DNA of 64,000 bases from Dudresnaya verticillata. Its lineage: Eukaryota. The position numbers and the translations under genes were made by a program. Below are positions 3,640-44,255 of this stretch, piece after piece (the stretch's first letter is position 1; each line of letters opens with the position of its first letter). The notes under the pieces were generated by a model. It was not told where the DNA came from. It made no database searches and was given only the letters and a program-made list of their open reading frames with translations. The DNA is taken from NCBI GenBank assembly GCA_977862235.1, contig OZ374559.1, positions 62,001 through 126,000 of the forward strand. Direction: 5' to 3'.

Positions 3640-3695
3640 CCAATTAGAAATCCGGTTCATAACGAAGTCTGGTTATGAACAGCGTTTTTAATTGG
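3640..3695. repeat. Imperfect 56-bp palindrome (CCAATT...GTTCATAAC / GTTATGAAC...AATTGG)
   Basis: Inverted arms read directly. The same unit occurs three times at 7038-7296. Confidence 0.7.
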
Positions 3696-6500: not shown

Positions 6501-6546
6501 TAAAACCCCTAAACCCCTAAACCCCTGAACCCCTAAACCCCTAAAC
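6501..6546 (+). repeat. Interstitial telomere-like tract (AAACCCCT)~5
   Basis: taaaacccctaaacccctaaacccctgaacccctaaacccctaaac. Confidence 0.75.
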
Positions 6547-13674: not shown

Positions 13675-13756
13675 TAAACCCCTAAACCCCTAAAACCCCT
13701 AAAACCCCCTAAACCCCTAAACCCCTAAAACCCCTAAAACCCCCTAAACCCCTAAA
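13675..13756 (+). repeat. Interstitial telomere-like tract, ~10 units of C4-5TA3-4 (CCCCTAAA)
   Basis: Directly visible. The C-rich strand is on +, i.e. left-chromosome-end polarity. Confidence 0.85.
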
Positions 13757-14296
13757 GTCCTCACCCAGTAACGGAAGCAATCGCAAGAAGAGAACTGCTT
13801 CCGATCGCAAGAAGACAGCTGTTTCCAGTCCTCACACAGGGACGGAAACAATCGCAACTTGGCAACTGTTCCCGGTCCCCACCCAGGGACGGTATCAGTC
13901 GCAAGTTTACAACTGCTTCCGGTCCTCACACAGGGGCGGAAGCCATCGCAAGTTGACAACTGTTTCCGGTCCTCACACAGGGACGGAAGTAGTCGCAAGT
14001 TGACAACTGCTTCCGGTCCTCACCCAGGGACGGAAGCAATCGCAAGTTGACAACTGTTTCCGGTCCTCACCCAGGGACGGAAGCAAGTTGACAACTGTTT
14101 CGGGTCCCCACCCTGGGACGGAAGCAGTCGCAAGTTGACAACTACTTCCGGTCCTCACCCAGAAACGGAAGTAATCGCAGGTTTACAACTGTTTCCGGGC
14201 CTTACCCACAGACGGAAGCAATCGTAAGCTCACAACTGTTTCCGGTCCTCGCCCCACCGGGGACTGGAAGCATTCGCAAGCCGACAACTGCTTCCG
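13757..14296. repeat. 47-bp minisatellite (~12 units), each unit containing an 11-8-11 dyad (cluster A)
   Basis: Unit ggtcctcacacagggacggaagtagtcgcaagttgacaactgcttcc. The spacer is mostly CAAGTTGA. Confidence 0.9.
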
Positions 14297-14901
14297 CGCC
14301 CAGCTTCAACCAGGCCCGGAACATTTCCTATGCGGGGATCCATTCCTATTAGGTACGAAGACCTCAGGACTGGGCTTGGCGGTCCGGGGCAGGTACGCCG
14401 CAGAGAGCTCAAATGTTTAGGGACAGAGACAACCAGGCCAGGTACGGAGCCCGCCGTAATAACATATCTCGGTTGTCCTCTCCTCACGACATCAGTCTTT
14501 CCGTTCCATATGCGATTCTCAGCACAACCTGCCCATCTCCGGCCATGACACAAGTGTTCCCCGAGACACAGCAGACGTGGGGAGTTCGAGGTATCACGGA
14601 CGGAGATGTCAGGACTAATCTCAGCGGAAGGTACCTCTGTCGGTTGCTTGACTTATACCTGTTCCTGCCTCTCCCCAGCCCTAAACCCCTAATCCCTGAG
14701 GCAGGCAAGCCGCAGGGAGTTCAAAGGTTTAGGGACGGAGAGGCCAGGGCAAGGTTGCGCTGCTTAACGCACTACTCGCAAACTACATTACTACATTACT
14801 ACTACTCAGCGCTCGTGGGTCTTCCATGGGAACTCCAACGGTCTCTCCTCACATCCTGACGTCTCCACTTGTGGTGCTTCCATTCTTGTCTCGTCCGAGC
14901 T

Positions 14902-15123
14902 CGGAAGCAGTCACAGATGCTCAATTGCTTCCGCCCTTGTGCCCGCTCCAGCCCGGAAGCAGTTGATGTTTGATAACTGCTCCCGTTCTTTATTCCGCCA
15001 CGACCCGGAAGCAATCGCATGTCCACAACTGCTTCCGCTCCCCACACGCTGACGACCTGCCCATTGATTCCGCCCATCCTCCCAGCTCACCCGGAAACAG
15101 TCGCAAATCGACCATTGCCTCCG
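14902..15123. repeat. Dyad cluster B (4 copies)
   Basis: For example GGAAGCAATCG-CATGTCCA-CAACTGCTTCC at ~15007. Confidence 0.8.
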
Positions 15124-15210
15124 GGCCCTCTCGACAGCGTTTACGCGCTGCTCTCAACCTCTCCTTATGTACAGTATCTTACAAATTCGACTACCCTACA
15201 CTCTACTCCT

Positions 15211-18200
15211 TCAAGCCTGTTCGGTTTCCCCGTCCGACATGTCAGGGTATGAATCCTTGCTCGATTCTTCCTCCCCATCCCCCTCGCCTCTCGGTCCGTT
15301 GCGGGCCACTTGCGTCATTATATGCTCATGCACTATTTCGACGTCACCAGCAAACAGAGTGGAAACGGCTGTACTGCTGTTGAGTTTCAAGTTCCCCTCC
15401 GCAGGTTTTCGGAGCATCCTCTCAACCACTTTCGCCTTCTCCGAAAGCACCACGCCGTCGTCGAACAACTCCGCTTCATCTTTCAGCAGGGCTATCGTGC
15501 TCGCCACAACCATCGCAAATTTTTTCTGCTTCTCCTCTTCCGTGCCCTGCTTCAGCGCCTCGGATGCGCATCCCATGGTTATGCTTCCTACGGTGTTCCT
15601 ATCGTGAGTCCTCCAATTCCGCTTCTTCGCGATAGTCGGTGTGGCTCCACTGCTCCCTCGTGGTGCTACCGGTTGGTCGTCCGTCCTTCTAGCACTGACA
15701 GAGACGTCCTTCGAGCGGCCCGATTGGCTTTCCGGATTCGGCGGGGTTGTCGTTTGCCTCTGCACAGATCCCCGTACAGACGGTTCCTCGGATTGTGAAG
15801 GCATCGGCGGTTCCTGGTCGCTGGACGGTCCGTCTCTCTCACTCAGGGACGGTCGCATGCTTCTCCTTTCCGGTAGCGTCGTCGTCAGCGGTACGTCAAT
15901 TCCCTTCACGCGCGTGTACTCCGTCCTGTCCAGAAACTCCAGCATCGTCGCCTTGGCCTCCGGTTTCGCTTCGCCTTCACGCATCTCCAGTGTAATGGGC
16001 ACTTCGAGGACATGCCCAATCGTTGGCTCGCCTTCCCGTATATAGTACAAGACTCGGGATATACGTGTGGGAATCTTCAGTACACGCCAGGCATTACAAA
16101 CGCCTTTGTACCGCCCTGCAGCATCCTCGATGACTCGAAGTACGTCATAGTCAAACTGACTGCCACCCATGCGCGCCCTGTCCATTGCCTTCTTCGAGCG
16201 CATACCGCTAGCAACTGTACCTGCCCACAAATCCACGTCATACTTCTCCGTAAACATCAATTCACGGAGAATGATCTGCAAGCCTGGGAGAGCCATGGCA
16301 ACTATGGCACACATGTGCGGATTGAGGAGCTTCATCCCCAACGCGGTTTGTGAACGATTCACAGCCCTTATGAAGCAGCCCGTTCCGTCATCCTTCTTCC
16401 AGGTCCGTTTGGCAAATTCGTCGTACTGTGGCCTTCTGTGCCACGTGTTGCCTGCAAACCACCTATAGGCATCCGCGGTATTGTGCGGCATCGATGCTAC
16501 GCACTTCCCAGCACCAAGCACGCAGTTCACAGATCGTAACCCGAGTAGTCCACAGCACAGAAGAGTAGCTGCCCTCGCAGCTCTTGCCCCGATCTTTGCA
16601 GCTTCCCCAGTGACCGACGGTTCAGCCCCATAGTTGGATGCTTGGTAGTAGTATTCTTCCGATTGCGCGTTCGGTCGAAGCTTCCCAAGGCTCGTCAACG
16701 GCTTTGCCTTCGTGTATCCTCCAATCGGGGCCTTCGCAATCATGTTCGCGTCCCGGTATCTATCCATGCGGTTCACAGCGGTAACCATGGCAACCCCGAA
16801 AAACTCAGTCCGGATCAGTCTCCTCTCCCCCTCCGCAATGCAGAACAGGGCCACCTCGTTCAACGCATACGTCTTCTTCGTTCCATCCGCAAGAATCCGC
16901 CGCCCCGTGGGCTGGTGCATACTACTGAACAGAGCGTCGCATTCCTTAGTAAACTCCTTCTTCAGCCAGCGGTATCTTCGCCCATCGTACGGCAGCTTGA
17001 AGGGGTGAGGCACGCCCCCTTCTTCCAACGGTGCGTCCCGAGCGTCCAGTACTTCCAGCGCCCAGGTCACGGCCTGATCTTCACGTATCAGTTGATAGTC
17101 ATATCGGCAACCCATACATGCGTGCTTGATTTCATTGTCGGCAATCTACACACACCCACATATGAAAAGAAAGTCAGAGCAATCTTTCGCCATGCTCAGG
17201 AATGACTGCCTGTCGTCCTCAGCCTTCTGCCTGGACACCACCACAGCCGCAGCGTGATGTTCTTCCAGAGATGTCTGTGGTGCTCTCCTCATAGGACCCT
17301 CCTCGGCATTCGCTTGTAGTCGCGCCCGCTTCGCACCGGCTGTCTCCTTGGAAGCAGCGGCAGTCCGCCCTTCGCTTCGTCTACGAGGTTTCGCATTCCG
17401 ATTCTTCTCGGCAACCTCGCCGATAACTGAGCGTGTCACAATGCCAGCTCGCTCTCCGGCAACCAACCCACCGCGAAGGTACATGCGTGCCGGTTGTTTG
17501 AAAATGTCGTCCGTAGTACCCCATTCAACCATGTCGAGTATTTGTTTGGGCCACGGCCCTATCTCGACCCCCTGCTTAGCACGGGGCAGCAGGCCAGCAG
17601 GGTCCACCGTTCTTCCTGGAAGGGCTTGTGGATTTGCGATTGCTTCCGGAGATCCAGCACTCGGTCGCCTCGACGGTCCTCCGCTACTCTCCTCATATTC
17701 CATTCGCGGGAGGTCGCACTGCTCGCGTATCTTCTGACAAGTGTAAGAAACGGCGCGCTCACTTGCCACGCTGCCTACGGTCGCTTCTTTCGGTATTGCG
17801 ACACGGGTTGGCATCTGCCTCGTACTGCCTGTTCGTAGGCGCGCGCACGACAGAGCCATTTGCACAGGAGTCGTATGCCCGAGACTGGCAGTCGCTTCAT
17901 TCAACCGACTTGCGACAGTTGTCATGAGCCCCTCAAGCCACTTTCCAGCCGCCTTGATATCTCCCTTGTCCCCAGGCATACCCACCAACTGCTGTTGCGG
18001 AATAATCATAAGTGACGCATGCACTGGCACTGTACCGATACTGTTGAGCGCTGCAGCGGACAACCTCACGTTCCCATCATTGATGCCAAGTGGCAGGCTC
18101 GGGGGGAGTACGGGGTCCGGTCCTGCCTTCTTCCAAAGAGGTGGCGCCGGTGGTCGCATCCCCCTCTTGTACCGGTAGAGGTATATAGGCCCAGTCACAC

Positions 18201-19494
18201 TCTTCCCTGGCGGGGGGTGTTCCGCGATTTGCATTCTTTCCAGGTACTCATCGGGCACCTCCAGCTGCAGGGCAGTGGAGGTGGTCATCAGGGATACTTG
18301 CCCCATGCTTTCAATCCATCTCGCAACCTTGTCCCCTGCACTGAAAAAAGATTTCCCCACTTCGCGAATATTTGATCGTGTCGCAATGCGGATGTTCGAC
18401 AACGGCGTCGCCACGGGCCACTTCGTCTCGTCCCCGTCTTTCGGATACAAAGAGTGGCCGATCGGCTGCTTGAAAACAGTTGTGCTCTCAGAACCACTAA
18501 AGTTGACCATTCTCCACGTGTCGAAATACTGCATGACAATAGAAGGATGGGGCATTGCAAAATCGCCGTCCCAGTCGCCAGTCATCCCGACCCCACAGAT
18601 GCCTCTCGGAACCCCGCAATAAAATATAGGCTTCAGAGAAGGGGCCCGCGGAGGCGACAATTCCTCATCACGTTGGTCCCCGTCTGCAGGAGAAGCAGAT
18701 CTTCCGGGACTAACGCCCCTACGCGCAACACCGGAGGACGCCTGGACGTGACGACCGTTGCCAGTGGCAGCCACATTCGACACGTCACCCCGGCCCGTGG
18801 GGTTCGTACCGGCGTTCGATGGCGTGGAATGCCTCTTCTCCGGTGGAATCGGGCGTGACACCATCCCAGTTGCGCGTCGAGGTACGACAGCTGCCTTGTT
18901 CAAACCCTTCGGCGACTTCTCACGAGGTGTCGGTGTAGATGATGTCGCCTCCTTAGCGCCAGGTCGTGTACCCGCTTTTTCCATTGGCTCAGTACCCGCC
19001 TTTTCAGTCGGCTCAGTACCCGCCTTTTCAGTCGGCTCAGTACCCGCCTTTTCAGTCGGCTCAGCCTCTTGCGGTACCGACACGTTCTTCTCCGCGGTCG
19101 ACACCCCATTGACTGCTGACAGTTTGTCAGGTCCAGGTGCAGGACGACGGCGAGGTGCACTTGGTCGCGGCGCACTGCCAGAATCGGCCGCAGGTTTGTC
19201 TCCAGTCGGTACTGCGGGGGTTGGATCCTCATTCTCTCCGTTCCCTGTCGCCTTGGTAGGGGCTGGCGGACCATCCTGTAAAGTCTCAGGGCGGGGAATC
19301 CCATTTGCTCCAGCAGTCCCCCCAGAGCCGCCTACGCTCGGTGCAGCAGCTTCCTTGTTTGGTGAACCATCTCCATCGCGACTCCCACCCGAGCCACGTC
19401 GGCCTCGTCCGCCTGCACGTTGACGACGACTTCGTGTCGCAATAGACTTCCCGCGGCCTTTCCCTGCCCCACTTCTTTTCGGGCTGTTCGTCAT
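15211..19494 (-). CDS. Large hypothetical protein (~1,430 codons) interrupted by one in-frame TAG at 17146-17148
   Basis: ORFs 17146-19533 and 15211-17115 are in the same frame (CGCV*IADNEIKHACMGC). The N-terminus is low-complexity with 4x EPTEKAGT (24-bp repeat, ~18968-19063). Confidence 0.65.
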
Positions 19495-19539
19495 TTCGGT
19501 TTGCTCCCCCTCCTCAGCAGTTTCGTTCTGCACTTCTTG

Positions 19540-20314
19540 CGGAGGCAGTTGTCGGTTTGCAGCTGCTTCCGAGTAACGGACGTTGAGCGGAAGCAGTCGT
19601 TGGTTTGCAACGGCTTCCGGCCCTTCTAGATCGCAACGGGTGGACTTGGTGTAAAAGGATACCCGGTCTTACAGCTGGCGCAGCTGTCAGGTTGCAACTG
19701 CTTCCGGGTATTGTACGTTGCGGAAGCAGTTGTCGGTTTGCAACTGCTTCCAGCTCTTCTGGTCGCAACGGCCGGACTTGATGGAGAAGGAGACCGGTCT
19801 TACAGCGCAAGCAGCTGTCAGGTTGCAACTGCTTCCGGATAGTGCACGTCGTGCGGAAGCAGTTGTCGGTTTGCAGCTGTTTCCGGATCTTCTTGTTCGA
19901 AATTTGATGGTGAAGGATACCTGTCTTACAGCGGAAGCAGCTGTCAGGTTGCAACTGCTTCCGGGTAGTGCACGTCGTGTGGAAGCAGTTGTCGGTTTGC
20001 AAATGCTTCCGGCTCTTCTTGATTGTAACGGTCGACCTTGTCAGAGAAGTGCAGAGAAGTGAACACCGTCTTGCAGCGGAAGCAGATGTCAGTTTGCTAC
20101 CGCTTCCGGGTGGTGGAGGGTGATCCGGAACTGAACCGGAATTAGATCCTGTTTCGGTCCACGTGTTCCGGTCTTGAAGCAGAAGCAGTTCTGTGATTGC
20201 AACTGTTTCCGGGTCTTCTGCTCCGAGACGGACTTGTGCTTGATGAGGATCAAGGCTATGCCCGGAAGATCCAGTTTTCAGGCGGAAGCAGTTGCAAATC
20301 GTCTGCTGCTTCCG
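19540..20314. repeat. Dyad cluster C (~11 copies, spacer polarity opposite to cluster A)
   Basis: GGAAGCAGTTG-TCGGTTTG-CAACTGCTTCC alternates with TCAGGTTG spacers in a ~130-bp higher-order unit. Confidence 0.9.
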
Positions 20315-21049
20315 GTATGCTTCTCCCGTTTACGAGCTTGTCGGCAACCAAACCAAGTGAGAACAGTAGACCGATAGGAGCAAAGCGAGCACAGAGCTGG
20401 AGAAAACTAGTCAGACGCAGTGCCTTCCTCAACTTCTCGTCAGTGTCGTGGCGGAAGCAATAGAGACCTTGACAATTGCAAACCGCGGGGCACAGTAGCG
20501 GCGCAACCCTTCGTGTTCTGGACGACCTGGCTGTTGGTACGAAGCGGGCTACTCCGTTGCAGTCTTGATCAGGACGCTGCTGTAGCAGTGAGGTAGTGTC
20601 GAGTAAGCTCGTCGGTAAAGGGCCTCGCAACGTCGCGGATAAACGCTGCAGTTCCTTCCCACTGAGAGCGGTTATCCGCAGACGCACAGTGTGGCAGTGG
20701 CGCTCCTTGGTGGCGCGTTTGGGGCTTCGAGAAGAGCGCTGCGTCAAGAGGCAGTGACAGTGCGGTTCTGTGTCGCCACAGATCTCCTTCACAGTCCGAC
20801 AGCGGGAGCCCTCAGCAGCACTGGCAGAGCCGTGCGCAAAAGTACGACGGGAAGCCGTGTAGTACACCCAACGACGGCAGTCGGTGCGGTAGGGCGCCGG
20901 GTGGTAGGCAGCGACACAATGCGCCAGCCAGACAACGGGGCAGAAGTCTTGGTAGCTTAGCTAGCAGTAGTTGCGCAGTCGACAGCGAGTACAGCAGTGG
21001 CAATTCCAAACACACCCGTCACAGTATCTGTGTCGATGCAGAGGGTGCG

Positions 21050-21460
21050 GGTAGACTGCGCAGGCGCAGGTGCAGGCGCAGTGTGCCGGTAGAGTGCGCG
21101 GGCGGGGGCGCGGGCGGGTTCTTGGACTTATGTGTGCGGGCGGGGGCGCAGGCGCAGGTGCAGGCGCAGTGTGTCGGTAGAGTGCGCTGGCGGGGGCGCG
21201 GGCGGGTTCTTGGACTTATGTGTGCGGGCGGGGGCGCAGGTGCAGTTGCAGGCGCGGTCTTGGGGCTTGGTGCGCGGTCGGGGGCGCGGGCGCGGGCGCG
21301 GGCGAGGTTGCGGGCGAGGTTGCAGCGGTGACGGCGCGGGCGCAGGAGCACGCGCGGTGTTGCGGTTTGGTGCGCGGTCGGGGGCGCGGGCGCAGGCGAG
21401 GTTGCGGGCGAGGTTGCGGCGGTGACGGCGCGGCCGCGGGCGCGGGCGCGGGTGAGGTAG
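21050..21460. repeat. GC-rich low-complexity tandem duplications
   Basis: Duplicated ~89-bp block containing gggcgggttcttggacttatgtgtgcggg, plus gcgggcgaggtt repeats. Confidence 0.75.
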
Positions 21461-22223
21461 CGGTGTTAGCGTAGAGAGCACGGGCGCGGGCGCGACTGTG
21501 CGGGTTGGGGTGGCAGTGGCGGTGTCGGCGTGAGCGGGAAGAGGGTGGAGGGTCCGTCGGTGGGGGTAGTTATGCCGCGGAAGCAATCGCGGGCGGGCGG
21601 GCGGCGTACATGAAGGCGGGAAATCGCGCGACGACGGCCGACGACGGCCAACGGCTGCAGGTGATGATTTGTAATTTTTGCGCCAAACAGTGGGAGATTC
21701 ATATTCTTTCCAGATTATCGACTGGGCATTAGACAAGTGTCGACCTCTGCTTCCTCCACATCTCCCTAGCCCATCACACGGACATCTGTCCTCCCATCTC
21801 TCGCATCACCGGACTGCATGACCCGCCTGCTCCCCTCATCCGCACGCGGCTTTTCCCCATATCAATCCCGCACTTTCCCTCCCCCACCTTCCCACCGTGC
21901 AGCACTCCCCCGCTTCCTTCGTGTCCGCTTTTCCTTCCCGGCCGTCTTGTCGCTTGCAGCATTCGTCGCCTGGGCAGCCTTCATAGTCTTCCTTCCCTGA
22001 GGCCTATCCCGCAACCGCACCGCACCCCGCGACGACGGCGACCGATGGTGGTCCGCGCAGGTCCCGCTTTCCAACACCGCGACAGGCTATGCAAGTCTCG
22101 GGCTATTCCTCCTGCTCACCTTTTTGGACAACTGCGGCGTATGGCAGATTCTAGCGCGGGCTACTGCTCAGGCAGGCTGATGTGCGTCCGCACATCGGAG
22201 CATACGCACACGCAGTCTCCCTC

Positions 22224-23045
22224 ATGATGCACGCGGGGTTCTGGCATGACAGGGACCATGAACGCATCCTGGCACATCTCACTGCGCTGCTGGTGGCAAT
22301 GAAGCTTCATCTACGTGACAGTCGTGTCTTGTCCGAGCTGAGGGCGTTGCTGGATGAGCAGTACGTGCAGGTGTTCGAGGAGGACGTACGTGAGCTCCCT
22401 GTCCGATGCATGGACGTGCTGCTGGCCTATCTAGACTCTGTAGACGCTGTTGAGGAAACTGTTGTAGCGGAGGGGAATAGACCTATCTTTGTCACTGCGT
22501 TCACCATGCAAGCCAGTCTTTGGGAAGCAGACCGTGCGCTGTGGGAGTGCGTCGCGATGAAGGAGGCTCCCATCGCACCCGCGTTCACGCTGCACGTACG
22601 TGCGTTCGCGGCCATCTGTTTCGTCTTACCACATTTGGACGAGAGCGATGAAGCAGACTCTGAGGTTTGCTTATTTGATGCCCGCGCAGAGAGGCGCACA
22701 GAGCGCTCGCTGTTCACGCACCTTCTACTCTCTAGACCGTGGTTTGCACTCGTGCTGACATTTTCGTGGGCTTCGGTTGCTTACTCGCGCTTCGAACGGG
22801 CAGGCGGACTTTGGGAAGGGAGACTCCGCGCGGGATGTCACTCACTTGCAGCTAATGTTTACATCTTCTATCGCGACGATGCGATACATGCAAGAGATAA
22901 ACATTGCCTCCTTGGGCTGATTGCAGAAAAACCGCTGCTGCTGAAGGCTGAGCTACGCAACTCTCGAGACGTACGAGACGTCAGCGCTTTATTGACATCA
23001 ACGGACCTTGCAAGCATGTCTGGGGCCGATAAAATGACGTTATAG
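22224..23045 (+). CDS. Hypothetical protein (~273 aa)
   Basis: Uninterrupted ORF with protein-like composition and no recognised motif. Confidence 0.45.
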   Translation: MMHAGFWHDRDHERILAHLTALLVAMKLHLRDSRVLSELRALLDEQYVQVFEEDVRELPVRCMDVLLAYLDSVDAVEETVVAEGNRPIFVTAFTMQASLWEADRALWECVAMKEAPIAPAFTLHVRAFAAICFVLPHLDESDEADSEVCLFDARAERRTERSLFTHLLLSRPWFALVLTFSWASVAYSRFERAGGLWEGRLRAGCHSLAANVYIFYRDDAIHARDKHCLLGLIAEKPLLLKAELRNSRDVRDVSALLTSTDLASMSGADKMTL

Positions 23046-26000
23046 TGCGCTAGTGTGGTTCGCGCGTGGCTTACGCGTATTGTCCTCTACTCAGACAAGC
23101 TGCTGAATGCGGAGCAATCGCGCCCAGGAGGGCGTGGGGGAAGTCGTGTCTTCAAGAAGCTCACTCGCACGGCTTTTCAATTAACAATGGACGTGGTGCA
23201 ACCATCAATGAAGATGACTTATGCACGATTGAGCAATGGCCGATTTTGCGTAATTGTGGCAGATATGTTACACGAGCAGCCATTGCTGGTTTTGTCACAA
23301 CTGCAGACTGACAACAATATCATCAGAGGTCCTCACAACGCAGGCCGCACATACGCAGAGTCATCTGCCACGCAAGTTTCTGCTAGTACTGAGCGGGTGG
23401 CAGGAACGTAGCAAGCCTGCCTTTCCGTCCTTTGCGATAACAACTGCCATATTAGCCCGTTACTACGGGTTCAGAGCTGCCTACTATTGTATCCTGGCTG
23501 CGAGACTGTTTGTCAGTTTTAGTCGACTCAGGTGAACCGACGCAACCAAGGAAAGACTATGAAAGCCCCAGGCAGTCCGCGATATCACCTTTCTCTTGCA
23601 CAGTGCCCTCCTATTGATATTCTTGACTCCGGGCTTTTGGTGCTTCACTGGCGAATAGCGGTGCCAAGGCGCCTCAAAGGGCTGCAGCTCTACTGCATTA
23701 CACTCCAGCCAGCGCCTGAACCCCATGCTAGAAACAAAAGAGTGGAACAAGCTGCTCCAAGCCCTGGAGATCACGCTATAATCCGATCCGTCTCCTATAG
23801 TTGCGGCACTAGCCATTCACGAGCCCTTCTAGCTCGGTCATCCAAAGCACCTCATCTGCTCCCGCGCCTTTCTTCTCGCCACCTACATTCCCCCTCCCCT
23901 GCAGTACACCTTTCGCACCTTGCAAATATTCCCAACTGGTCTTGAAGTTAACCCCGCTGCGAAAATTCCACATAAGCGCCTCAATCCCATTTCGCAAACT
24001 ATCTAGCCCAGTGCCAAACCTCGCCTTCACCTCCTCAACTCCCGCCACGCTATCGCTGTGAATCTCCTGTGCGAACGCATCTGCCGAAGCGCAACAGTGT
24101 AAGTCCCATGCAGCACATCTCCCTTCCGCAACACTCGGTCCTTTGCCTGCATCAGCCTATCTACTCCATTCCGTCATCGTCAAGTCCGCCATGACCTGCC
24201 GCCGCGTACATCTCCCGAAGCACATGCTCCCATTCCACCGCTTCTGCGCAAAAACGAGCTTTCCACACGCACGCTGCGCTTCGTACCATGCCCACACCTC
24301 CCGGCATGCCGCCGTATGCCGCACACATGCGCAGTGCACCCACAAGGTCCCTCCCGAGCCCTTGTCCGACATATGCACCGCCCTCTTCCCGCCTGCTCCG
24401 CACGGCTACGGCATCGCGCCCTCGCACAGCAGCAAGCTGGTGCGCAACGCGCGCTACAAGCGCGAGGTCGGCCAAAGTGGATCGAAAGCCTTTCGAGCCG
24501 GCCGAGAGGAGGAAGACCAGCTCCGGGTAGGCGGGATGAAGCAGGGCGCCCTCGAGCTTGAGGATGGTGAGCCGGCGGAGGGCGTCGAATAGGGAGCGGG
24601 TCTTGCGCGTGAGAGTGATTGCGAGGCGTGCTGCGGGGTACGCTAACCCGCGGCGAATTGCTTTCTGCAGCACAGAGCGCAGGATGGAGTGCGGCAGACG
24701 CGACGCGGGGCTTCCCCCGCTTCAGCGAGGCGTTGTGTGCAGTTGCCCGTCCCCAACTACACTGACCTCTCACCGAATGCACAACACAACTATTCTGTCA
24801 GCGTAGGAAAGAAATCGAGGTACATGGACCAGGGCTCACTCCCGGCAATTCATACAGAAGTTCCCATTGCGCGTTCCCGGTCACGAAACAGCGCAAGCGG
24901 CTTGTTATGTGCGGCAGCCAGAGCCGTTTCACCAACCAGCAGGCCTATTCCTGCTAGAGCATCACGTGGCGGAGAAACTTGCGCCGGTGAAGGCAACACC
25001 CGGCTTTGGCCCAGAGAGATCTGTGTTGCATACGCGTTGACTTGAGAATGCTTCGCAGTAACGCGCATGACAATGGTGTTTCGTCCGGCAAATTGCGTAG
25101 CGCTGATCTGGCTCATGCCGTAGTGCTATGGCGGAGGGCTGCTGCCGCTGTAGTCCATTCGAGTTGGAGTACAGTGCTGGTCGCTGGTCATCAAGACGGC
25201 TGCGTCACGGGTTGGTTTGGTTTGGTTTGTAGGCGACTGCTGCACACCAGCCCTATACGGACCGAGTGCTCGTGAGACGAGGCGGTGCCTGCACCGCGCG
25301 CGCACCTGCCACCGCATCGCGAACCACGCTTCAGCACGAGCGTCTGACGCTCTATATCATTCGCCAGCCCATGCGCCGAATAGATTTGTCGCTGTGCCAA
25401 GACCTGTTTGGCCTTCGTGTGCGTCCTAACACCCACTTCCTCATCGTCGTTATTGCCCAGTTGCCCCCTCTCGCCTTTCGAGATAACATAGATAGCCGGC
25501 CTACACTCAGTCCTGCGTTCACCCTACCGCTGGACACACTCACTCGCTCCCCGTGTCATCTATCCGACAGCTCGCTGTCTGGCTGTCACCTGCTCACTTC
25601 CGCGCCCTCTTCCACTCTTGCCCATTTAACGAAGCAGCCTGTTGTCAAGCTGTCAGTGTCCAACAATCCGCGCTCTTCGGAACGGCGTCATCGGCAACTG
25701 CATACAGAAACCCTTTGGACGAGAATAGGGTACTGCAGCGGGGTATACATCTAGTACAGGAAAGGGCCTTAATGCCCCCATCCATTCCCGAATCCCTGTC
25801 CACAACAGTAGATGTCAACGCTCATTCTCATTCCAAACTGTTCTAAAACTTAACAGCCGATGCTGAGTGCGAGTTGGACTACATGCACAGCACAGCGACA
25901 GGAGGCGGAGCAGCCGATATGCTGCATGGCACCGCAGCCGCTAGCGTATCCGTAGTTCTGAACGCGAATATGCGCCATGCCCTACACCGTCACGTGATCA

Positions 26001-26952
26001 TTCCTATCTTGCTCCCGCAGGACACCAATACGCTGCGGTACGGTAAGCCATAAATCAGCGGGGTCAGGTAAGTTCTGGCAATTATCCGTACGCTAAGAGG
26101 AAGCCACGGGGGCAGTAGCCAGAGCAGTTGCGGTTGATTCAACACGCAGTACATCCAATTCACTCGAAACCTTCCCAGGTCCCTCGCGCGGGGTCGAATG
26201 CATCGTCTGGCCGTCTTATGGCACCCTGCATTACTCGAGAGGCTACTCGGGCATAGCACACTGCTGACCCGGTTTCGAAAGTTGAGAACGCGTTATTAGT
26301 TTCACTTCTTCTTCGCCCTCTTCCACACTTGGTCCTTTAACGCAGAAGCATGTCGCCAAGCGCGTACGGTGCAGCATTCCGCGCGCTTCACAACGGCGCC
26401 CGTGGCAACTGCAAAGCAACCATCGCGTTGATGAAACTGTCATTGTATGTCATAAACATGGCGCCACAGTGAGAGTAACTGCGCGTTCCACGTACGGTAG
26501 GACACCTGATCCCGTCGCGGCAACATCGTAGCTGCAATTCGTTTCATGTCCTATTGCTGCATATCAAACCCCGTTACAAAATGCGAGCTGCGTAAGGTGT
26601 CAATTGTTCCATCAGCTTGCATCTTGAGTAGCCAACTACGGCTGCTGGTCAGTTCACTGTAGGGCTGCCACCTGATCGTCCTGCCAACCTCTTTGGCACA
26701 ACATGCCTCTGTCGCAGCAATATTGTGTTTGCAATGCACTTGATGTCCGATTGCGGTAGATCGAATGGCATTACGAAAGGCGAGGTGCGTAACGTTTCAA
26801 TTGTTCCACCAGATTGCAATCTGCACATGAGACGCTGGGCCATTTCGGAAGAGGGCATGAGAAGAACTTTCAGCAAGGCGCAGAAAGACTTGTTGTTGAT
26901 TAGTAAGCTCATGCAGCAAGGAGCGGTGAGAACGTTGTCAACTCGAGCAACT

Positions 26953-27087
26953 CCAGGCACAAGTGCCGGAGAGTTGCTCAATTTGCAGGCGGCGCAGTTC
27001 ACCACGCATAGTGTTAGACCAGGCACAAGTGCCGGGGAGGTGCTCAATTTGCAGGCTGCGCAATTCACCACGCATAGTGTTAGACCC
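26953..27087. repeat. 66-bp tandem duplication
   Basis: ccaggcacaagtgccgg...catagtgttaga occurs twice. Confidence 0.85.
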
Positions 27088-28001
27088 TGAAACTCGCCGT
27101 CGGGAGGCAGGCCTGCCCTTTCCGGTTCAATGTATTGGTAGGTGCCACGGGTATGAAATCTGCTTTCACATACAGTTTCGACACCACTGGCGGGAGAAAG
27201 CCGAAGCCCACGCAGCAAACCAAGCTCCCACACTGCTAAACCAAGCTATTCGACGCCCTTCCCAAAAGGCGACAAACGGCTTTGCCACGGTCTCGTCATG
27301 CAGCAGAGCCGTCAGACGGTTTCACACAGCCAGATTCGCTGCAATCTTGACCAGCCCCAGTGCGGCTGCGTTGCCCATCGGTAGCGATGCGTGGGAGTAT
27401 TTCTGGACTGGGGCGGGATTTGGTCGCGGCACAACAGCGCCGCTCCAGCGACCCGCAACGGCGGCGACGATGTGCGGGCATCGTCGCGGGTGTCAGGTGG
27501 AGTTGGGAGCGTGGTGCGCAGGGGGGTTGTGCAGTGCACTTGACGGCGGTGACCGTTGCAGATCTTGAGGCAGCCGGGCGTGGTGCGCAGGGACAACAAC
27601 ACGTGTATGCAGCGGTCGTTGGAGGTGCGGGTGCTGCAGTCCGTTTCGAAACTTTACAACTTTTCTGAACATATTGTAGCTTGCCCTAAACGATCGGAGA
27701 TCAGTACTAAAATGCGACGCCGGTAGGAGACTCCTCTCCACCCTACTATCGACTGCGCGCGGAAACCAACCTCTACCCTCGCACTACCCTCACTCTCACC
27801 TCGCACTACCCAAGCTCCAACCTCAACCTACCCTGCTTCTTCTAACCTCGCGCTTTCCACCCCACTCTGGCGCGATCGACCCATCCTAGCGCGCGCGACC
27901 AACGTCCCTTTACCATTACCGCTTGCACCGTACGTCCGCGCGTTTTGCATTCCATCTTCCCCGACGACGGCGATATTACGATCACTCGCAACTGGCGCGC
28001 T

Positions 28002-28090
28002 CTGGTATTCGTGTTACGCTTGTTATCGTGTCAACACGTGCACACGGTGTGCACGTGTTGACACGAGAATGCGCGTAACACGAATACCAG
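28002..28090. repeat. 89-bp near-perfect palindrome (18-6-20-1-20-6-18)
   Basis: ctggtattcgtgttacgc / gcgtaacacgaataccag and tcgtgtcaacacgtgcacac / gtgtgcacgtgttgacacga are exact reverse complements. Confidence 0.95.
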
Positions 28091-28127
28091 GGTTGCCACG
28101 TGGACACGTATGCCTTGCATGCTTTCC

Positions 28128-28401
28128 GGAACCGTTTGCTGTTCTGCTTCCGCAGAAGCAGTAGAAGCACCGTGACAGCTTCCACAGTCGCGTCCCTGCG
28201 CGTCCCGCGGAAGCCGTCGCAACTCCACTACTCCTTCCGCAACGGATGCTTGCCTTGCCTCCACCTACTAACAGCTACCATCTGACCGCGGAAACAGTTG
28301 CCTATCTACATCTTTTTTCGCAACCATTAACTGTCATCTGCGCATTTGCTAACACTCCCAGTCTGTCTGCGGAGCCCGTCGCAAACCTATAACTGCTTCC
28401 G
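28128..28401. repeat. Dyad cluster D (4-5 degenerate copies) downstream of the YR-RecQ gene
   Basis: For example GGAAGCCGTCG-CAACTCCA-CTACTCCTTCC and GGAGCCCGTCG-CAAACCTA-TAACTGCTTCC. Confidence 0.65.
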
Positions 28402-28649: not shown

Positions 28650-31600
28650 CTACAACCCAAAAACCTCCACAGCATAGCGACAAAACTCTAGAATTCCGGG
28701 GCACCATCCCGGTTTGTCTACGAGAAGTTCCTCGCAAAACTGTTGCAGTCCTGTGCATCTCCTGAATCTCTGCATTCCCGTATGCTTCTTCATCTCCTCC
28801 CTCCACCGCTGGTTGTTCCACATCATCAGGGCCAGTTGCACAGGCCTATAGAAGGGACACCGCTCCAAAGATCCATACTCGTTCTGCCCCCGCAGTGGAC
28901 TACCGCTACCTACATGTGTCTTCTTCGAACCAAAGGTCTTCATCGAACATTCAGAACACCTGTTCGAAAAGAGCCCCCTCTTCGACTTCCAAGGCCGCAT
29001 CCCGCACTGTGTGGCCCTGTGCCCTGACTTCATGCAGCGAAAGCACAGTCCAAAGCTACAGACTCTGCAATGCTCCTTCGACTTCACCGCTTCAAGTCCG
29101 GCTGCATCCCCGGGTCTCGAACGCCCCCAGCACGGCGCGCATACCGTTCCCAGCTTCATCGAGAGATCCCGTAATTCTTCCACCGCATCCATCGCTCGCC
29201 GTCCGAACAGCAGCCACCACGCTGTCCTCCGGAGTACACTGTACGTCCAGACTCAACTCAGGTGCAGCTTGCAGCTGATTGCCCCCGCCCTCAGCTGGCA
29301 ACAGCTCCCCACTCGAATCACTGTCGTCGGTATCTCCCGCCAGCTTCTCCAGGTGTATCTGCGTCGGACTCGCATACACACCCCCGGTCGAGGCCAAGAG
29401 TACCGACGAGGCCTCCTCCAGGACTGGAGCAGGCTTGGCACATACATCGCACAACTGTACGGTCTCGTCTGGCAGTGTGGTCACACGCTCCGTACAGTTG
29501 CTCGGTACCTCCGGGCATCCCAGGTATTGCTCGATGGCCACACTTCGACACCGCCCCGTTTCTTCGGCCCATCTCTGGAATCGCTTAAGAGCCATCAGAC
29601 CCTCCGTGTCCCTTACATTTGCACGGTCCCCAAACTCACGGTGGTACAGTACACTCACAACCCCGCTCTTTCCATCCCTTCCAACCCGCCCGGCAACTTG
29701 GTACAGCTCCAACAGTGAACGGGTGCTCCCAACAATCACTGTCTTTGACACGTCAGGAGCATCAATTCCCGTCCCAAACCCTTCCGTAGCAATCATCACG
29801 CAAACGGTAAGCTCCCCCGCCCTCCCCCACTTCCACTGGGACACACTCCGCCGCCGCGCAGTATCATTCATCCCACTGTGATACTTCGATATCACAACCC
29901 TCCGGGATGCTTTAAACTCTCTCCTCGCGCAAAGGGCTGCATGCATATCATCCGCTTCACCCTTAGTAAGTACACACACCAGAACCTTCCCCCCCGCGCG
30001 CTCGGAAAAGGCCAGGCGTACCCCTGCCATCACACTGTCATTAACACACCCCATCACTTCTTCATCCTCCGCACTGGACAGCAGGTGCACACTGTACAGT
30101 ACATTGTTCCGCCGCATGCTTCCACGAACAACCTCCGTGTCCCCAACATTCGCACCACAGGCAGCAATTATCCTGTTCCCCATATGCACCGGGGCTGTGG
30201 CTGTCATCATTATCAGAGGGACACGCACGCGAGCCGGTCTCGCGTGACGCATCCGTAACATGCACTCCCGATAGTGCGCGCTCAATAGGATAATGTGAGC
30301 CTCATCCACAACAACCCTCATCAACTTCTTGTTCTTGTGCAACACGCGCAGAGCAGCCTTGTATTTCGCCAAAGACACATGCTCTGGCGCGGCCAGGATT
30401 ATACCTTTGCCGAATATTTCCATCTGTTCGTGATCATGGACGTCTTCGAAATCCAAAACGGGCAGCATGATGCTGTCGCACCGCTCTCTGATCTCCTCAC
30501 GCAACACACGAAGGGGGCATATGAAAACAGTCACCCCTTCCTCGCGCAATGCGGGCCCAAAAATAACCGCAGTCTTGCCAGCCCCCGTCCGAAGTACAAT
30601 TAACGCGCCCCTCTCCCTCCTGACAACAACCCTCATTGCATCCTTCTGTTTCTCACTCCTGAACTCAGCCTCAGGATCTCCAACCGCTTCCTGGAGACAC
30701 TCAACCAAACTCCATCGGGTCCCAGGTGACACGTCTTCATCAGACGACGAATACTCTCCCCTCTCACTTTCCAGCCTCTCCTTCTCATTAATTTGACGAA
30801 CGTCCTGTTCGTAAACATCCATTCTCTTTCCGATATCGGAAAGAAACCCGACCAGCTTGCTTAAGAGCTCAGGGTCCCCCGCCTTCGGCTTCCCATCCCT
30901 CTCCTCACCCTCACTCCGTCGAAGACCATGAACGCCCTTCTCCGCAGCAGCAGCATTCACTGCGTTCACACCATCCCCCCCGCTCTGCCCCCGTCCCTCC
31001 CCTCTCTCTCCTTCCCACGCCACCCCTTCACTCACGCCCACGGTCACCGCGTTCACATCCCTTGTCCCCGCCGCCGCACCCCGTTCTTCCGTTCTCTCTC
31101 CTTGCGACCCAGGCACTTCACTCGGGCCTGCTGCGCACCTCCCCCTCCGCCTCCGTCGGCGCAAGAACATCTCCTCCTCCATCACTGCGAATTTGAGCTT
31201 CCGACGCTTCCCGGTACCTTCCATGACTTCCGCATCCGCGGCCCATCGAACCCTCTTCTTCCCTCTCTCTTCACGGTTGCCGCCGCTGTGCGTGCCACTA
31301 GCACCACCGGCTGTATCCACCAATACCCTCACATCCCCCTCCTGCAGATCTACAGCACCTCTTTCAGTGCGCGACGGCGGTCGAGGGACAACTTCTCGCA
31401 TTCCCTCTGTCCCATTCCCGCTTTCAGCCTCCCCATCACCCTCCAAACGACCCATTTCCGCTCGGGGCACCTGTCCCGCAAAGCTCGGAGAGCCTGGCGG
31501 CAGTTGCAATTCCACATCTGCATCCGGCTCGCTCCCACCATTCCGAGATCCGAGGGACTCCAGCAGCTCCGGAAGCAGTTCCAAATCAATATGTGCTTCC

Positions 31601-34600
31601 GGGTCGCTCCCACCATTTCGAGATCCAAAGGACTCCGGGAGCTCCGGAAGAAGTTCCAAGCCGATATCTGCTTCCGGATCGCTCCCAGCATTCCTAGATC
31701 CGATCAAACCCGGAAGCAGTCGCAACCGATCTTCTGCTTCCAGCTCGCTTCCATCCCTGCTCACTCCCATTTCATCTTCCATCGCTTCCCCAAACAGTTG
31801 CCTCCTGACCCCGCCACCTCGCCCCGATTTCTTCTCCTGTTTGCGCCCTTCGGCCTCCGACTCACGCTCCTTCCGACTTCCGCCGACACTTCCCGGAAGC
31901 ACTCGCAACCCGGCAACGACTTCCGCAACGGAAATGCTTCCACACTCCACTCCTCCCCCGCTCGCTCCCCCCAACAACTGCCGTCGAACCCCCAAGGGCC
32001 CGACCGCTTCCTCCCTTCGTCTTCCACAATCCGTACCCGAGGCCTTTCCACTTCCTCCAAAGTCCTCGCCCTCCTCCTCGTCGGCCACAATTTCATTCCA
32101 GTCGACGTTGCTCGCCAACCCACAGTCGAGGAGCCACCCATCTGAAGCTCGCTTGAAATTCTTCATTCTTCGGTCGTCGATTTGCCCCCCTCCGGCAATG
32201 TTCGGTGCGCATGCCCCATACAGCGTCCGAGCCACCTCCATCGAATGCGCTCCCTGCACCTGCAGCACATTCCCGACAGCCCCGCCGCGCATCGCTTCCT
32301 CCTCCGATTGTTCCTGCGGAGTATTGCTCAACACCCTCGCTACAACCCGAAAGTCAGCATCCTGGTTCGCCTTGTCATTGGCATACCCGCCAAACCACTG
32401 CCGATGCATTTCGGCACTGTAATCTTCGGGCAACCCAAATTTCCTCCACATGATGGAGGCCATTTGCAAGCACCCGTTTCGAGCGCTCTCAGTGGGCATC
32501 AAGTAATCGTAAGCACCGTCTTGATCCACATCTTGGACCCTTCCTGACCCTCCCCGTTGCAGATGCCGGGACAGCGCCAGGCGCAAGTCCATACCGACAA
32601 GAATCATCACCTTGAGAAGATTGCTTGTCACCACATCCGGGTGCTTACTGATCACCCGCATCTTCCCTCTCTTCATGTTCCTGGTCTTGTCGTATGTCGG
32701 AATAACGGCGACCCGAGGTCCACCGGGAAACTGTATTCCTCGCGGTCCACTTGCCGTGTTCCTCACAGCCAAAAAACCCAGCTCCGGACCCCGGCACACA
32801 TTGCCTCCAGACAAGTGCATGCAGGCCACAACAAGCACATTGAACTTCCTTATAACAGACAGCATCTCCCTCGCCCGCTTGTCGAAAGCTCCGTCAGAAA
32901 GATGATCCATCTTCCTCACTGCCTCACCCACCAAATCTCGGCATTCCCGAGCAATATCCCCATTCCGTTCATCGGCCATGAACCCGTACGGGACCAGCTT
33001 CCTCGTCGTGTGGTCCACAATCTGGGACAGTCGCCCCTGAAAGTTCGTTGGCATCTCGACCCCTCCCAGAATACCATCCGCTCCAAACATCAGCCGCACC
33101 GCCTCTTTTTGCATCTTCTTCACGCAATGGCCAATCTCCTTCGGACTCATGTGCAGCCCCTCCACATATCCACAACACAACCCGTCGTGTTTCAGGTCTT
33201 CGCAAGGCATCCACGTGTTCCTCGCATACTCCTCATTTCGAAACCTTCGCGCCTGCAAACAAAGAGACTGGAGAAAGTGAATTCCAAGACTCCCGCCAGC
33301 CTGATGCCTCACTTCCACCCTGGCCAACTCTTCTTCACTCGTACCCTCCTCCGGGCTGCATATGTCCATCAACGCACAGCAAGAGCTCGCATACGCAAGC
33401 GCAGCAAGAACCGGGGACACATCCCTCCCTTGCGAGAAAGTAACACCCCTCCCTGCCCGCTTCACGCCGAGACAGGTTGTCAGGACATGGGCAGCGCAGA
33501 AGCGACTACCCTCATCCACGCTTACCTTCTCGTATAGCAAAGCCCTCAAGAGGCGGTGCATTGCTCGGACAGCTTCAGACCTCTTCCCCGGAACCGGTCG
33601 CAATTCGACATCTGCTTCCGCGTCCCGGTTCTTCTCCTCCAGGTACACAACCATCACCTTCGCACAAGCATCCCGTACTTCTTCACTACCGATCAACCCT
33701 TTCGCAGATTCAGGCCCATCCGTCATCCGCAAAAGACCCAGTGCCACACCTGCCACCGATGACGCATACCTCTTCCTCGATTGCTTCTGCACAAGCACAA
33801 ATTCTTTCTTGTCCGTCCTGTTCGCACCTGGCGGAGCTCGACAGCCAGCAACACTCTGGCCATGGACATATTTGGCCTTCCAAAGCACAGCCGCCCAGCC
33901 TCGAACAGCGAAAGAACAGTCTTCGCCAACCACTTTTTGAGATCCACCTCATCGGCTCCACAAACCATCACCCCCCCGCTCGCTTCCCCACACAGCTTCG
34001 CGGCCTCCTCCATGGACATTTTGAGCTGTTCAAGCTTCAAGTCCAGCCTCGTTGCACTCGCAAACCCTCCCATCTTCCTCACATCCTTTTCCACAGGCTC
34101 TTCCACTTCGACTCTTTCCTTCTCGACCTTCTTGAGCTCCTGCAGAAGACGTCGAACATTTGAAGTTCCCTGCCCACTTGCTTGCCCACCTCCACTAGCG
34201 TGAGTATTGCCCTCTACCTCGTCCTTGATAACAAACGGGTTTCCCACTGCGTTGGATTTGAACAGTTTCTGGCACTTCATGACCCCAAGTCTCTTCATCT
34301 CTGTGAGGGTAATCTTCTTTCCAGAAGACCTGTGCATTTCGAAATGCTTCTTCATCGACTCGGGAGAGGACGACATGAATGCCCACTCCGAGCAGGGAAC
34401 ACATTGCAACACCTTCAGAAACGGAATACGGCGCACACTGCAACGAGACATTTCTGGCGCACAAGTTCCTATGTACGCTCCGTACTCTTCTTCCGAGCAG
34501 CTCTTCACAATCCCGTCCTTCACGGTCTTCCATGCCTTGAAAATGTCGTTGGATTCCAAGCGACTGATTCTCCTACCCGGCTGGCACTTCTGTATATGCC

Positions 34601-34754
34601 TGAACAGGTTGTCAGCACCGCGCGCTCCAAAGAACACGGCATGTCGACACACACCGCATCCAAGCTCAGCAACCTCGGGAATCAGATGCAAGTTGTACTC
34701 AGCCAGCTTGGAAACCGCCGATTGAACAACCTCAATACGGTCAACTGAACCCAT
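28650..34754 (-). CDS. Zn-finger / tyrosine-recombinase-like / RecQ helicase / CCHC fusion resembling telomere-linked helicases, split by two frameshifts (~33836 and ~29190-29250)
   Basis: RecQ motifs: TGAGKT, PLRVL, DEAH, TAT, YHSGM, ATEGFGTGIDAPDV, QVAGRVGRDG and RQC CR...C...CDVC. YR-like motifs: SGGNVCRGPEL, YDK, MHRQ and GAHS...LYG. N-terminal CGVC...HIQKC and CVPC...HFEMH; C-terminal CFRCMKSGHRATQC. Confidence 0.85.
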
Positions 34755-34877
34755 GTCGTAATGCGGGGTCACCACAGCTTCCTCAACGTCACAAACCTCT
34801 CGTTCGATGAAAAAAGCTGCATATGTCGGAAAATGTGATTCAGGTTAGCGTACTGAGTATGCTTCCGTAGCAGTTCG

Positions 34878-35677: not shown

Positions 35678-36570
35678 GAGCTCAGATCCAGACGTGATCT
35701 GATCCATTCCTGATATCTAATCAGTTCTGTAACGTGTGTTTGCAAATGTTCTCCGGAAGCATCCGCAACCTAGCACCTGCTTCCACGGAACGATCTTGTC
35801 GTACCTACCCGGTTACTACCTTCCCTGTGGACCGGTTGGTCTTCCCCATGGACCAAACGCTCTTCCCCGTGGACCAAACGCTCTTCTTCACGTATCCAAC
35901 GCTCTTCCCTGGGACTCCGTCGGTCTTCCCTGGAACTGCATTGGTCTTCCCTGGAACTGCGTTGATTTTCCCTGGAACTGCGTTGGTCTTTCCTGGAACT
36001 GCGTTGGTCTTCCCTGGGATTGCGTTGGTCTTCCCTGGGATTGCGTTGGTCTTCCCTGGGGATTGCGTTGGTCTTCCCTGCAACTGCGTTGGTCTTCCCT
36101 GGGGAACTGCGTTGGTCTACTGGTCACGGTCGACGTCGACCATTCTGACTCCGATAGTCTTCACAGCTTCTCATCTCATCGAAGCTCAGATCCAGACTTG
36201 ATCGGATGCGTTTGGTATGTCGGGTCAGTTCTGGAATGTATGATTGCAAACGCGCTCCGGCAGTGTCCGCAACCTAGCACCGGCTTCCAGGGAACGGTAT
36301 TGTAGTATCTACCCGGTTACTATCTCCCATATGGTCCCGTTGCTCTTCCATGTGGATCCAACACTCTTCCCCGGGACCAGATAGTGTTCCCTGGGCCCCT
36401 GTTGGTCTTCCCTGGGACTGCGTTGGTCTTCCCTGGAACTGCGTTGGTCTTCCCTGGGGACTGCGTTGGTCTTCCCTGGAATTGCGTTGGTCTTCCCTGG
36501 AACTGCGTTGGTCTTCCCTGGGCATTGCGTTGGTCTTCCCTGGGAATTGCGTTGATGTTCCCTGGGACGC
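35678..36570. repeat. ~500-bp diverged duplication, each copy with one dyad followed by a 21-bp minisatellite (gcgttggtcttccctggaact)
   Basis: Shared leader agctcagatccagac...gcaacctagcacc at ~35680 and ~36183. Arrays lie at ~35900-36118 and ~36398-36570. Confidence 0.9.
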
Positions 36571-43440: not shown

Positions 43441-44255
43441 ATCATCATCATCATCACAACTTTATTGAAGCAAGACGAACATTGGAAATCACAAGTTGTG
43501 GCATTAAGGGATAATAGAGCTGGACACTTTGGTAAAATGCAGTGTGTATCTCCGTAAAAAGCATAGCAGGCAATGCCAAGTAGACCCAGAGGAGGGAAAC
43601 TTGGCCTTCGCCGCTAACCGTCGTCATCGCTGCCGCCCTTACAACAGAGTCGCGAGCCTTCCTTCATCGCAGCGCGGTGCACATGTATTTGGCGCCTGCG
43701 CGGATTGGCTCACTGTGAGATGTTTTGACCGCTCCCAAACATCGTCATCGTACCGCTGCAGTCTCGCGCTCCGCCGCTCAGCTCAGTCTCGCAATCCCAT
43801 CCGTCATCCACCGCCAGCATTTCGTGCCCACCAAACCGTTGTGCAGTCTCGCCGTCACGGCCTCTGCCGCGCCGTGTATGACATGGGCTGTAGCGATGAC
43901 GTCGTTTGAGAGATGGGGAGCTTTATGGTAGGGTTGGAAGGGCGCTAAGTCGCCTTCGTTTGTGCGTGACCGAAACATCTCGCAGAGCGCCACTCCGCGC
44001 AGGCGCCAAATACACGTGCACTGTGCTCTGACGTGACAACGCGCCTTTCGACTTTTACAACATCCGCTCCAAACAGCTCCGCCGCGCGGCACACCGCCGC
44101 CCACGCCGCGCTGCAACACCTCCCGCCGTCCCACTCGCAACTTTCATCGCGGCATAAATAGCGCCGTGCGCTTGGCGCACTCGCTCCCGACACACACACC
44201 CCAACCATCCCATCTCCAACCGTCTCCACCCGCTCGACCGCCCGCTCCTGCCGAC

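Follow-up and report, generated by a model that had tools for sequence, protein, structure and literature searches.

An 89-bp quasi-palindrome beside a TLH-RecQ gene of a likely red alga, tentatively read as a local inverted duplication

We describe an 89-bp quasi-palindrome (28002-28090) that is real and far beyond chance. It stands beside a gene of the TLH-RecQ type. Its best explanation, which we hold tentatively, is that a short unit holding a dyad, in the flank on the telomere side of that gene, was duplicated locally in inverted orientation, probably when replication or repair switched template; on the same tentative footing, the palindrome is likely not the target of the recombinase-like domain encoded next to it. 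Coordinates refer to the window, the whole 64-kb stretch of DNA that was analysed.

Anatomy of the palindrome

Re-derivation gave the coordinates and the arm layout claimed in the earlier note, with two 44-bp arms flanking one central G (28046). Its parts and near copies are:

28002-28019 and 28073-28090: outer arms, 18 perfect bp
28026-28045 and 28047-28066: inner arms, 20 perfect bp
28020-28025, + strand: left mismatch block TTGTTA, facing 28067-28072
28067-28072, + strand: right mismatch block GAATGC, facing 28020-28025
28010-28038, - strand: left internal dyad unit, with 9- and 8-bp half-sites and a 12-nt spacer
28054-28082, + strand: right internal dyad unit, with half-sites as in the left unit and a different spacer
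28091-28108, + strand: degenerate copy, in direct orientation, of the last 18 nt (inner end) of the left arm, 13/18 identical, core 11/12
25022-25068 (dyad unit 25033-25065), + strand: possible free-standing diverged copy of the right arm, marginal

The perfect 18- and 20-bp arms around a single G had been described correctly; the 6-nt blocks, described as wholly mismatched, are not so, as two of their six positions pair. Thus, the arms are complementary at 40 of 44 positions. The four mismatches are clustered (p=0.003), and two of them are G.U-compatible on the + strand.

We compared the perfect 20-bp stem with other stems and observed that the runner-up within the 64-kb window reaches 11 bp, while the longest perfect stem in block shuffles was 9-12 bp (12/12 shuffles). 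The DNA fold of the palindrome has a z-score of -8.4, with none of 200 shuffles equally stable, and the RNA fold has a z-score of -7.6. In the scan of the 64-kb stretch, this is the most stable 100-nt RNA window (-69.2 kcal/mol). The + strand RNA is predicted to fold into 18+4+19 bp with two single mismatches and a 3-nt loop (-67.4 kcal/mol), and the - strand RNA with a 6x6 internal loop.

A second full-length copy is absent from the 64-kb window, and the core gave no match in viral and metagenome contigs, nor in phages or plasmids. Mirror symmetry does not extend beyond the arms, the flank alignment being matched by 220 of 300 shuffles. The replicated hairpin terminus proposed earlier is at odds with flanks that are not mirror images, and a fold-back assembly junction is disfavoured on the same ground. 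Direct repeats of 4-10 bp were not found within 15 bp of either edge (repeats of 2-3 bp fell outside the scoring).

Each arm is itself an imperfect dyad, in which 9- and 8-bp inverted half-sites enclose a 12-nt spacer containing the mismatch block; a comparable internal dyad arose in 9 of 400 shuffled arms. The differences between the arms are confined to this spacer. The motif ACACG/CGTGT occurs four times in 45 nt of arm (16/5000 shuffles). The direct copy at 28091-28108 begins exactly at the right edge of the palindrome, and the chance of such a match is ~1-2% (56/3000 shuffles and 41/3189 window 40-mers score equally). The possible copy at 25.0 kb lies 3.0 kb away in direct orientation, shares an 8-nt spacer core with the right arm and has one symmetric (compensatory) change in both half-sites. 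Its score was reached by 9 of 1467 shuffles (nhmmer E 0.2), and 4 of 60 real control 44-mers outscore this copy, itself found post hoc. A donor for either mismatch block was not found within 1 kb (best 8 nt).

Two further candidates were considered. A mirror of a circle junction does not fit, since what the left arm reflects is the sequence on either side of the right core rather than a joint between the 25.0-kb and 28.07-kb units. A Helitron-type 3' end has CTRR at 27992 and 28002 (+ strand) by pattern only, and no Rep domain was found.

The TLH-RecQ gene and its subtelomeric setting

28650-34775, - strand: TLH-family gene, in three overlapping ORFs (33723-34775, 29092-33933 and 28650-29192)
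32098-33036, - strand: modelled recombinase-like domain, with R381, K416, R511, H563 and Y572 (numbering of ORF 29092-33933)

Judged by its sequence, the gene lying 560 bp from the palindrome is a frameshifted member of the TLH family, an assignment made via homologues and domain layout. The spacing agrees with the earlier note, the stop codon of the last ORF being at 28650. The three minus-strand ORFs are taken as one gene because full-length single-ORF homologues align across the pieces, and the N-terminal ORF aligns with the N-termini of the homologues. Two frame changes interrupt the gene but not its intact homologues, and errors in the sequence may account for them. Its order is an N-terminal zinc-finger region, the recombinase-like TLH domain, a RecQ helicase (DEAD 1095-1248, E 9e-13; Helicase_C 1310-1421, E 1e-10) and a C-terminal Cys/His region. 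Residues 1-618 of the TLH ORF have 115 homologues at E<=0.001. Among 18 homologues scanned, 11 have an OrsD/PF12013 match (E<=0.01) and 15 a helicase, and of 30 looked up a single one carries a name, a Chondrus crispus RecQ. A word-based protein search gave no match for residues 1-620, and TLH loci were absent from viral and prokaryote contigs.

The middle domain of the TLH protein is predicted to have a tyrosine-recombinase-type fold with R-K-R-H-Y conserved. The structure model covers residues 300-612 (pLDDT 81). Tyrosine recombinases, type IB topoisomerases or their kin make up the best 23 of the 50 matches listed in a wide structure search (Z 8.6-4.5). The top match among those listed is Xer 4a8e (Z 8.6, rmsd 3.3, 151 aligned), and phage integrases, Cre and TopIB are among the other best ones; Z near 8 is only moderate, yet the matches listed agree. 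With Foldseek, 9 of the best 10 matches were tyrosine recombinases, though at E of at least 0.26. In the covering rows of a 39-row alignment, R381 is conserved in 35/37, K416 in 37/37, R511 in 26/32, H563 in 27/30 and Y572 in 26/29; a His three positions before the second Arg is absent. As the fold matches agree and the catalytic residues are conserved, the label YR-RecQ, given to the gene before, is sound, with the predicted recombinase fold fused to RecQ. No protelomerase chain appeared among the 50 wide-search matches listed or the Foldseek matches listed, which leaves room for membership of that family. A 618-residue model gave no Foldseek match. PDB sequence and Pfam searches gave no clear recombinase match, one family member reaching E 0.16 against Phage_integrase. 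The named ESM Atlas neighbours, PF00589, PF16787 and PF13009 at 0.82-0.83, are leads only.

The surroundings of the gene contain the following:

6503-6546, + strand: second interstitial telomere-like tract, oriented as the one below
13675-13756, + strand: interstitial telomere-like tract, TAAACCCC-type, joined directly to a 47-bp array of the 30-bp dyad
27633-27730: strand-skew switch, G-rich on the left and C-rich on the right, with an AT-rich core and telomere-like CCCTAAA at 27684
28154-28400: four copies of the 30-bp dyad (cluster D), best 16/30 against the palindrome
35820-36568: tandem arrays with a 21-bp unit, which lie upstream of the TLH gene and bound the dyad-bearing block on its right

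The 3' end of the gene points towards the telomere-like tracts, 15 and 22 kb away, and the true chromosome end lies outside the window. From these tracts, which resemble the Bostrychia telomere TTTTTAGGGG (10.1101/2025.02.11.637652), we would place the chromosome end to the left, and the TLH gene is likely in a red-algal subtelomere. The window is eukaryotic, and its likely red-algal origin is further suggested by the named Chondrus crispus homologue and by ORFs that are long and poor in introns.

We observed 46 copies of a 30-bp dyad between 11684 and 36288, against 2 matches in 10 shuffles. It has 9-11-bp arms and an oriented spacer, and is placed in arrays, in the TLH coding sequence and beside the telomere-like tract at 13756; the span 21755-28153 is free of it. 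The pattern had no occurrence in viral contigs. This dyad is the best candidate for a docking site of the TLH protein, a putative role. Cluster D does adjoin the palindrome, as had been noted, its nearest copy beginning at 28154, 63 bp off. We found no sequence kinship between the palindrome and the 30-bp dyad, 16/30 being the chance level (chance alone gives 16-19 in the loci). The right-hand dyad-bearing TLH block has the palindrome at its left edge.

The strand skew flips at 27680 (+0.30 left, -0.44 right), ~300 bp upstream of the palindrome on the + strand. In a comparison of six hand-picked sites, similar flips were seen at 21690 (+0.39/-0.44), ahead of a bestrophin-like gene, and at 1850 (+0.16/-0.30), where two ORFs diverge; 35170 had none. 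The switch at 27633-27730 would be either a divergent promoter or an old distal edge of the TLH block. A 91-codon frame between the flip and the hairpin matches no Pfam family.

Other features of the window were recorded. A second dyad-bearing block (13757-21750) carries the orphan ORFs 15211-17115, without Pfam family or homologue, and 17146-19533; this block may be a distal part or partner of the TLH element. The orphan ORFs 457-1632, 2003-3406, 5081-6412 and 8977-10173, lying between and beyond the telomere-like tracts, look related, and 2003-3406 and 5081-6412 are clear paralogues; their Atlas neighbours, helicase-associated AAA_11 clusters (0.75-0.77), serve as a lead only. A 102-bp tandem repeat with an imperfect dyad of its own (7021-7301, one more copy at 3606-3698) is a second element-specific repeat of the distal blocks. 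The 561-aa orphan ORF 10466-12151 has an NNSCALD stretch, which we take to resemble cysteine-protease motifs. Inside the dyad-free gap is a Bestrophin_2-like gene with broken frames (22046-23045), which had no match in the word-based protein search. A cluster of Sel1-repeat, Roc and TIR genes and fragments occupies 44166-59943; one gene is intact, with 1578 aa and eleven 111-bp repeats.

Origin of the palindrome and competing readings

If the palindrome arose by local template switching, a polymerase would have run through the left arm as far as 28046 before changing strand; after ~44 nt of backward synthesis, it would have rejoined near the start of the last 18 nt and so left the degenerate direct copy at 28091-28108. 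Later arm-to-arm switches would keep the arms identical, with one multi-base event leaving the 6-nt block, and the working docking site of the element would be the separate 30-bp dyad. Such a palindrome might form a cruciform, or a fold in RNA transcribed from it, even if neither had been selected. This origin accounts for the single copy, the unique flanks, the missing target duplication, the clustered differences and the adjacent third copy. Clustered mismatches are a known signature of template switching (PMC5453318), and a single event can make a perfect stem (PMC8794818).

Linkage of the palindrome to TLH genes was assessed in 22 TLH-homologue loci from a metagenome scan. Nine of them have 995-3856 bp past the gene end (ends set from ORF lists), the other 13 being without usable downstream flank or assigned end. 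The loci are 23-33% identical in protein over long matches and most likely come from other lineages. The palindrome expected beside homologous genes was absent from all nine downstream flanks, the proteins being only 23-33% identical. No comparable hairpin was seen in any of the 22 loci, where the best inverted-repeat score was 17, against 32 for the palindrome, and the most stable 100-nt fold -48.9 kcal/mol, compared with -69.2 kcal/mol for the palindrome (downstream of the gene, in the nine loci, -40.0). As the loci are so distant, this is a weak test; going by these sequences, the absence weakens a family-specific site, without refuting it. The single copy in 64 kb and the lack of a comparable hairpin in 22/22 loci count for a local accident, and the fact that the repeated site of the element is a different dyad, in 46 copies, counts against the palindrome as its site.

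In two loci (L016 and L019), telomere repeats follow the TLH gene, in line with the orientation suggested here and with that in M. oryzae (PMC1635262), and no long palindrome is present. Short recurring dyads occur in 6 of the 22 loci (L008, L010, L012, L020, L021 and L022); they are locus-specific, 18-26 bp long, and lie upstream of the TLH gene and at breaks between its ORFs. In one locus (L002), a perfect 17-bp inverted repeat lies 1.9 kb beyond the TLH gene. There, at L002:7421-7493 and following a second, decayed TLH fragment, two tandem 17-bp units precede one inverted copy, and the contig ends 24 bp further on.

Several observations count against the template-switch origin. The return geometry inferred here (switch point 4 before point 1) belongs to a class unobserved in human-chimp data, as far as the accessible text of that study goes (PMC5453318). 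The missing block donor within 1 kb (best 8 nt) is a second such point. Arm dyads centred on the mismatch block, together with the symmetric change at 25.0 kb, look like a selected binding site; the 17-bp inverted repeat past the TLH gene of L002 and the promoter-like skew flip 300 bp upstream (+ strand) also weigh against it. Unselected long palindromes are unstable, which is a further count against this origin. Template switching and later use are compatible, since a hairpin so born could later be transcribed or bound.

A selected hairpin-RNA (miRNA-like) precursor is a possible, if unlikely, reading. A stable single stem-loop is predicted, in which two positions of the + strand pair as G.U and just two single mismatches are left, at -67.4 kcal/mol. 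However, two G.U-compatible positions among four mismatches are expected by chance in 26-74% of cases, and the + strand enrichment is not significant. The skew flip at 27680, like those fronting other genes of the window, would fit transcription of the + strand into the hairpin, as would the lack of a Pfam family in the intervening 91-codon frame, but the C-rich skew to the right of the flip also continues the gene-strand bias of TLH. Chondrus crispus encodes DCL and AGO (PMC12026948). On the other hand, all Rfam matches were below the gathering score, the best (MIR7486, 49.3 of 67 bits) being a generic hairpin, and no arm 21-mer had a match with fewer than four mismatches elsewhere in the window.

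We consider it rather unlikely that the palindrome is a cis-acting DNA site of the TLH or a partner element, in which head-to-head dyad units, with four half-sites and asymmetric spacers, would bind the recombinase-like domain or the zinc fingers and be used for excision, inversion, hairpin formation or replication start. The predicted tyrosine-recombinase fold of the neighbouring domain, with its conserved R-K-R-H-Y, and the position at the left edge of the dyad-bearing TLH block argue for such a site. Tyrosine recombinases act on sites in which inverted repeats of 11-13 bp enclose a spacer of 6-8 bp, and the confinement of arm differences to the internal-dyad spacer is reminiscent of this layout; the half-sites here are, however, 8-9 bp with a 12-nt spacer (PMC3212892). 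A possible third unit (25033-25065, direct orientation, 8-nt core shared) would fit as well, but it is marginal (nhmmer E 0.2). Also against this reading, the palindrome is unlike the 46-copy dyad (16/30, chance level), its centre is odd, without a self-complementary central 6-mer, attC boxes or extrahelical bases, and it is absent from 9/9 homologue downstream flanks, with telomere repeats after the gene and no long palindrome in L016 and L019. A fuller version, that the palindrome is the substrate of the TLH recombinase, with RecQ exposing or remodelling a cruciform and the recombinase cutting four half-sites to give a hairpin end or to excise a 3-kb unit (cores at 25.0 and 28.07 kb), appears doubtful.

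It is very unlikely that the palindrome is the remnant of an unrelated TIR transposon, whether a fold-back MITE or a pair of terminal repeats brought together when the interior was lost: the iterated short motifs in the arms (ACACG/CGTGT four times) recall transposon ends and a dispersed half copy may exist at 25.0 kb, but direct repeats of 4-10 bp within 15 bp of the edges and a second full copy in 64 kb are lacking. An assembly or base-calling artefact, such as a fold-back read or a mis-called second arm, is the most improbable of all; the two TLH frame changes missing from intact homologues speak for it, but the mirror symmetry stops at 44 bp with unique flanks, both spacer versions sit in one half-site frame, and the right spacer core recurs at 25.0 kb.

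If the template-switch origin is true, the instability of subtelomeres will have produced the palindrome as a commonplace side effect of little import. Were it instead a substrate, it would be the first cis site for the TLH domain, TLH elements, long regarded as telomere genes of fungal hosts, would be mobile and would extend to red algae, and the protein would be a nuclear structure-recognising recombinase, a kind so far known from integrons and hairpin-telomere replicons. In the accessible accounts, TLH genes are described for fungi and one choanoflagellate only (PMC1635262; 10.1101/2024.02.27.582403). The surroundings of the palindrome carry more weight. The likely red alga described here, with a TLH-type gene whose recombinase-type catalytic residues are intact, a 30-bp dyad of the element's own and tracts resembling telomeres, widens the family beyond these, and the 30-bp dyad and the palindrome offer two concrete candidate DNA substrates for the question of the role of the TLH domain. 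In the literature outside subscription papers (the 2009 TLH-domain paper among them) and bioRxiv supplements, we found no long palindrome at TLH genes, no recombinase fold in the TLH domain and no red-algal TLH gene.

Comparison with known systems

Protelomerase sites (phage N15 telRL, the Agrobacterium TelA site and the Ectocarpus phaeovirus telRL-like site) likewise have a long inverted repeat near a tyrosine-recombinase-type gene, and brown-algal viruses provide a eukaryotic precedent for them (PMC13236599, PMC3558466). Protelomerase cuts are spaced by 6 bp and centre on a self-complementary 6-mer (PMC3558466, PMC13236599), so that their sites have an even, self-complementary 6-bp core and a 6-nt stagger, whereas the palindrome is centred on a single G (PMC13236599, PMC3558466). 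With this odd centre, and neither central 6-mer self-complementary, the suggestion of a telomere-resolvase site holds up poorly. The best structure matches of the neighbouring domain, among those listed, are of the Xer/Cre type rather than protelomerases.

The integron attC site shares an unpaired block (here 6 nt, with four mismatches) between two paired segments (PMC5027507). In contrast to attC, the palindrome has a 3-nt loop, a single copy and a eukaryotic host, and lacks the boxes (PMC5027507). An attC-like hairpin, also raised earlier, sits poorly with the absence of RYYYAAC/GTTRRRY boxes in 27950-28140 and of extrahelical bases, the arms being equal in length and aligned without gaps.

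Crypton transposons share the recombinase fold and the lack of a target-site duplication, and an 8-nt core recurs here 3.0 kb away, marginally (PMC3212892). The word helicase does not occur in the main text of the Crypton paper, as far as accessible, whereas the TLH element has a helicase and shows no element ends (PMC3212892). Plant and algal pre-miRNA hairpins are likewise single stems of ~90 nt with few mismatches (PMC12026948); unlike them, the palindrome has no Rfam family at gathering score and no good target in the window. Template-switch quasi-palindromes are likewise short, single-copy inverted repeats with a tiny loop, a clustered multi-base difference and no target-site duplication (PMC5453318, PMC8794818).

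The fungal TLH regions of Magnaporthe oryzae and Fusarium oxysporum encode the same zinc-finger, TLH-domain and RecQ protein (PMC1635262; 10.1101/2024.02.27.582403). In their accessible parts, these accounts mention no long palindrome and do not term the TLH domain a recombinase (PMC1635262; 10.1101/2024.02.27.582403). The 21-bp arrays resemble in position the HAR-CDEF boundary of M. oryzae (PMC1635262), where HAR-D contains a conserved 23-bp imperfect palindrome (PMC1635262). Common to the fungal regions and the present one are a gene 3' end towards telomere repeats (here interstitial telomere-like tracts), upstream tandem arrays, short conserved palindromic repeats, frequent frameshifted copies and interstitial telomere repeats (PMC1635262; 10.1101/2024.02.27.582403).
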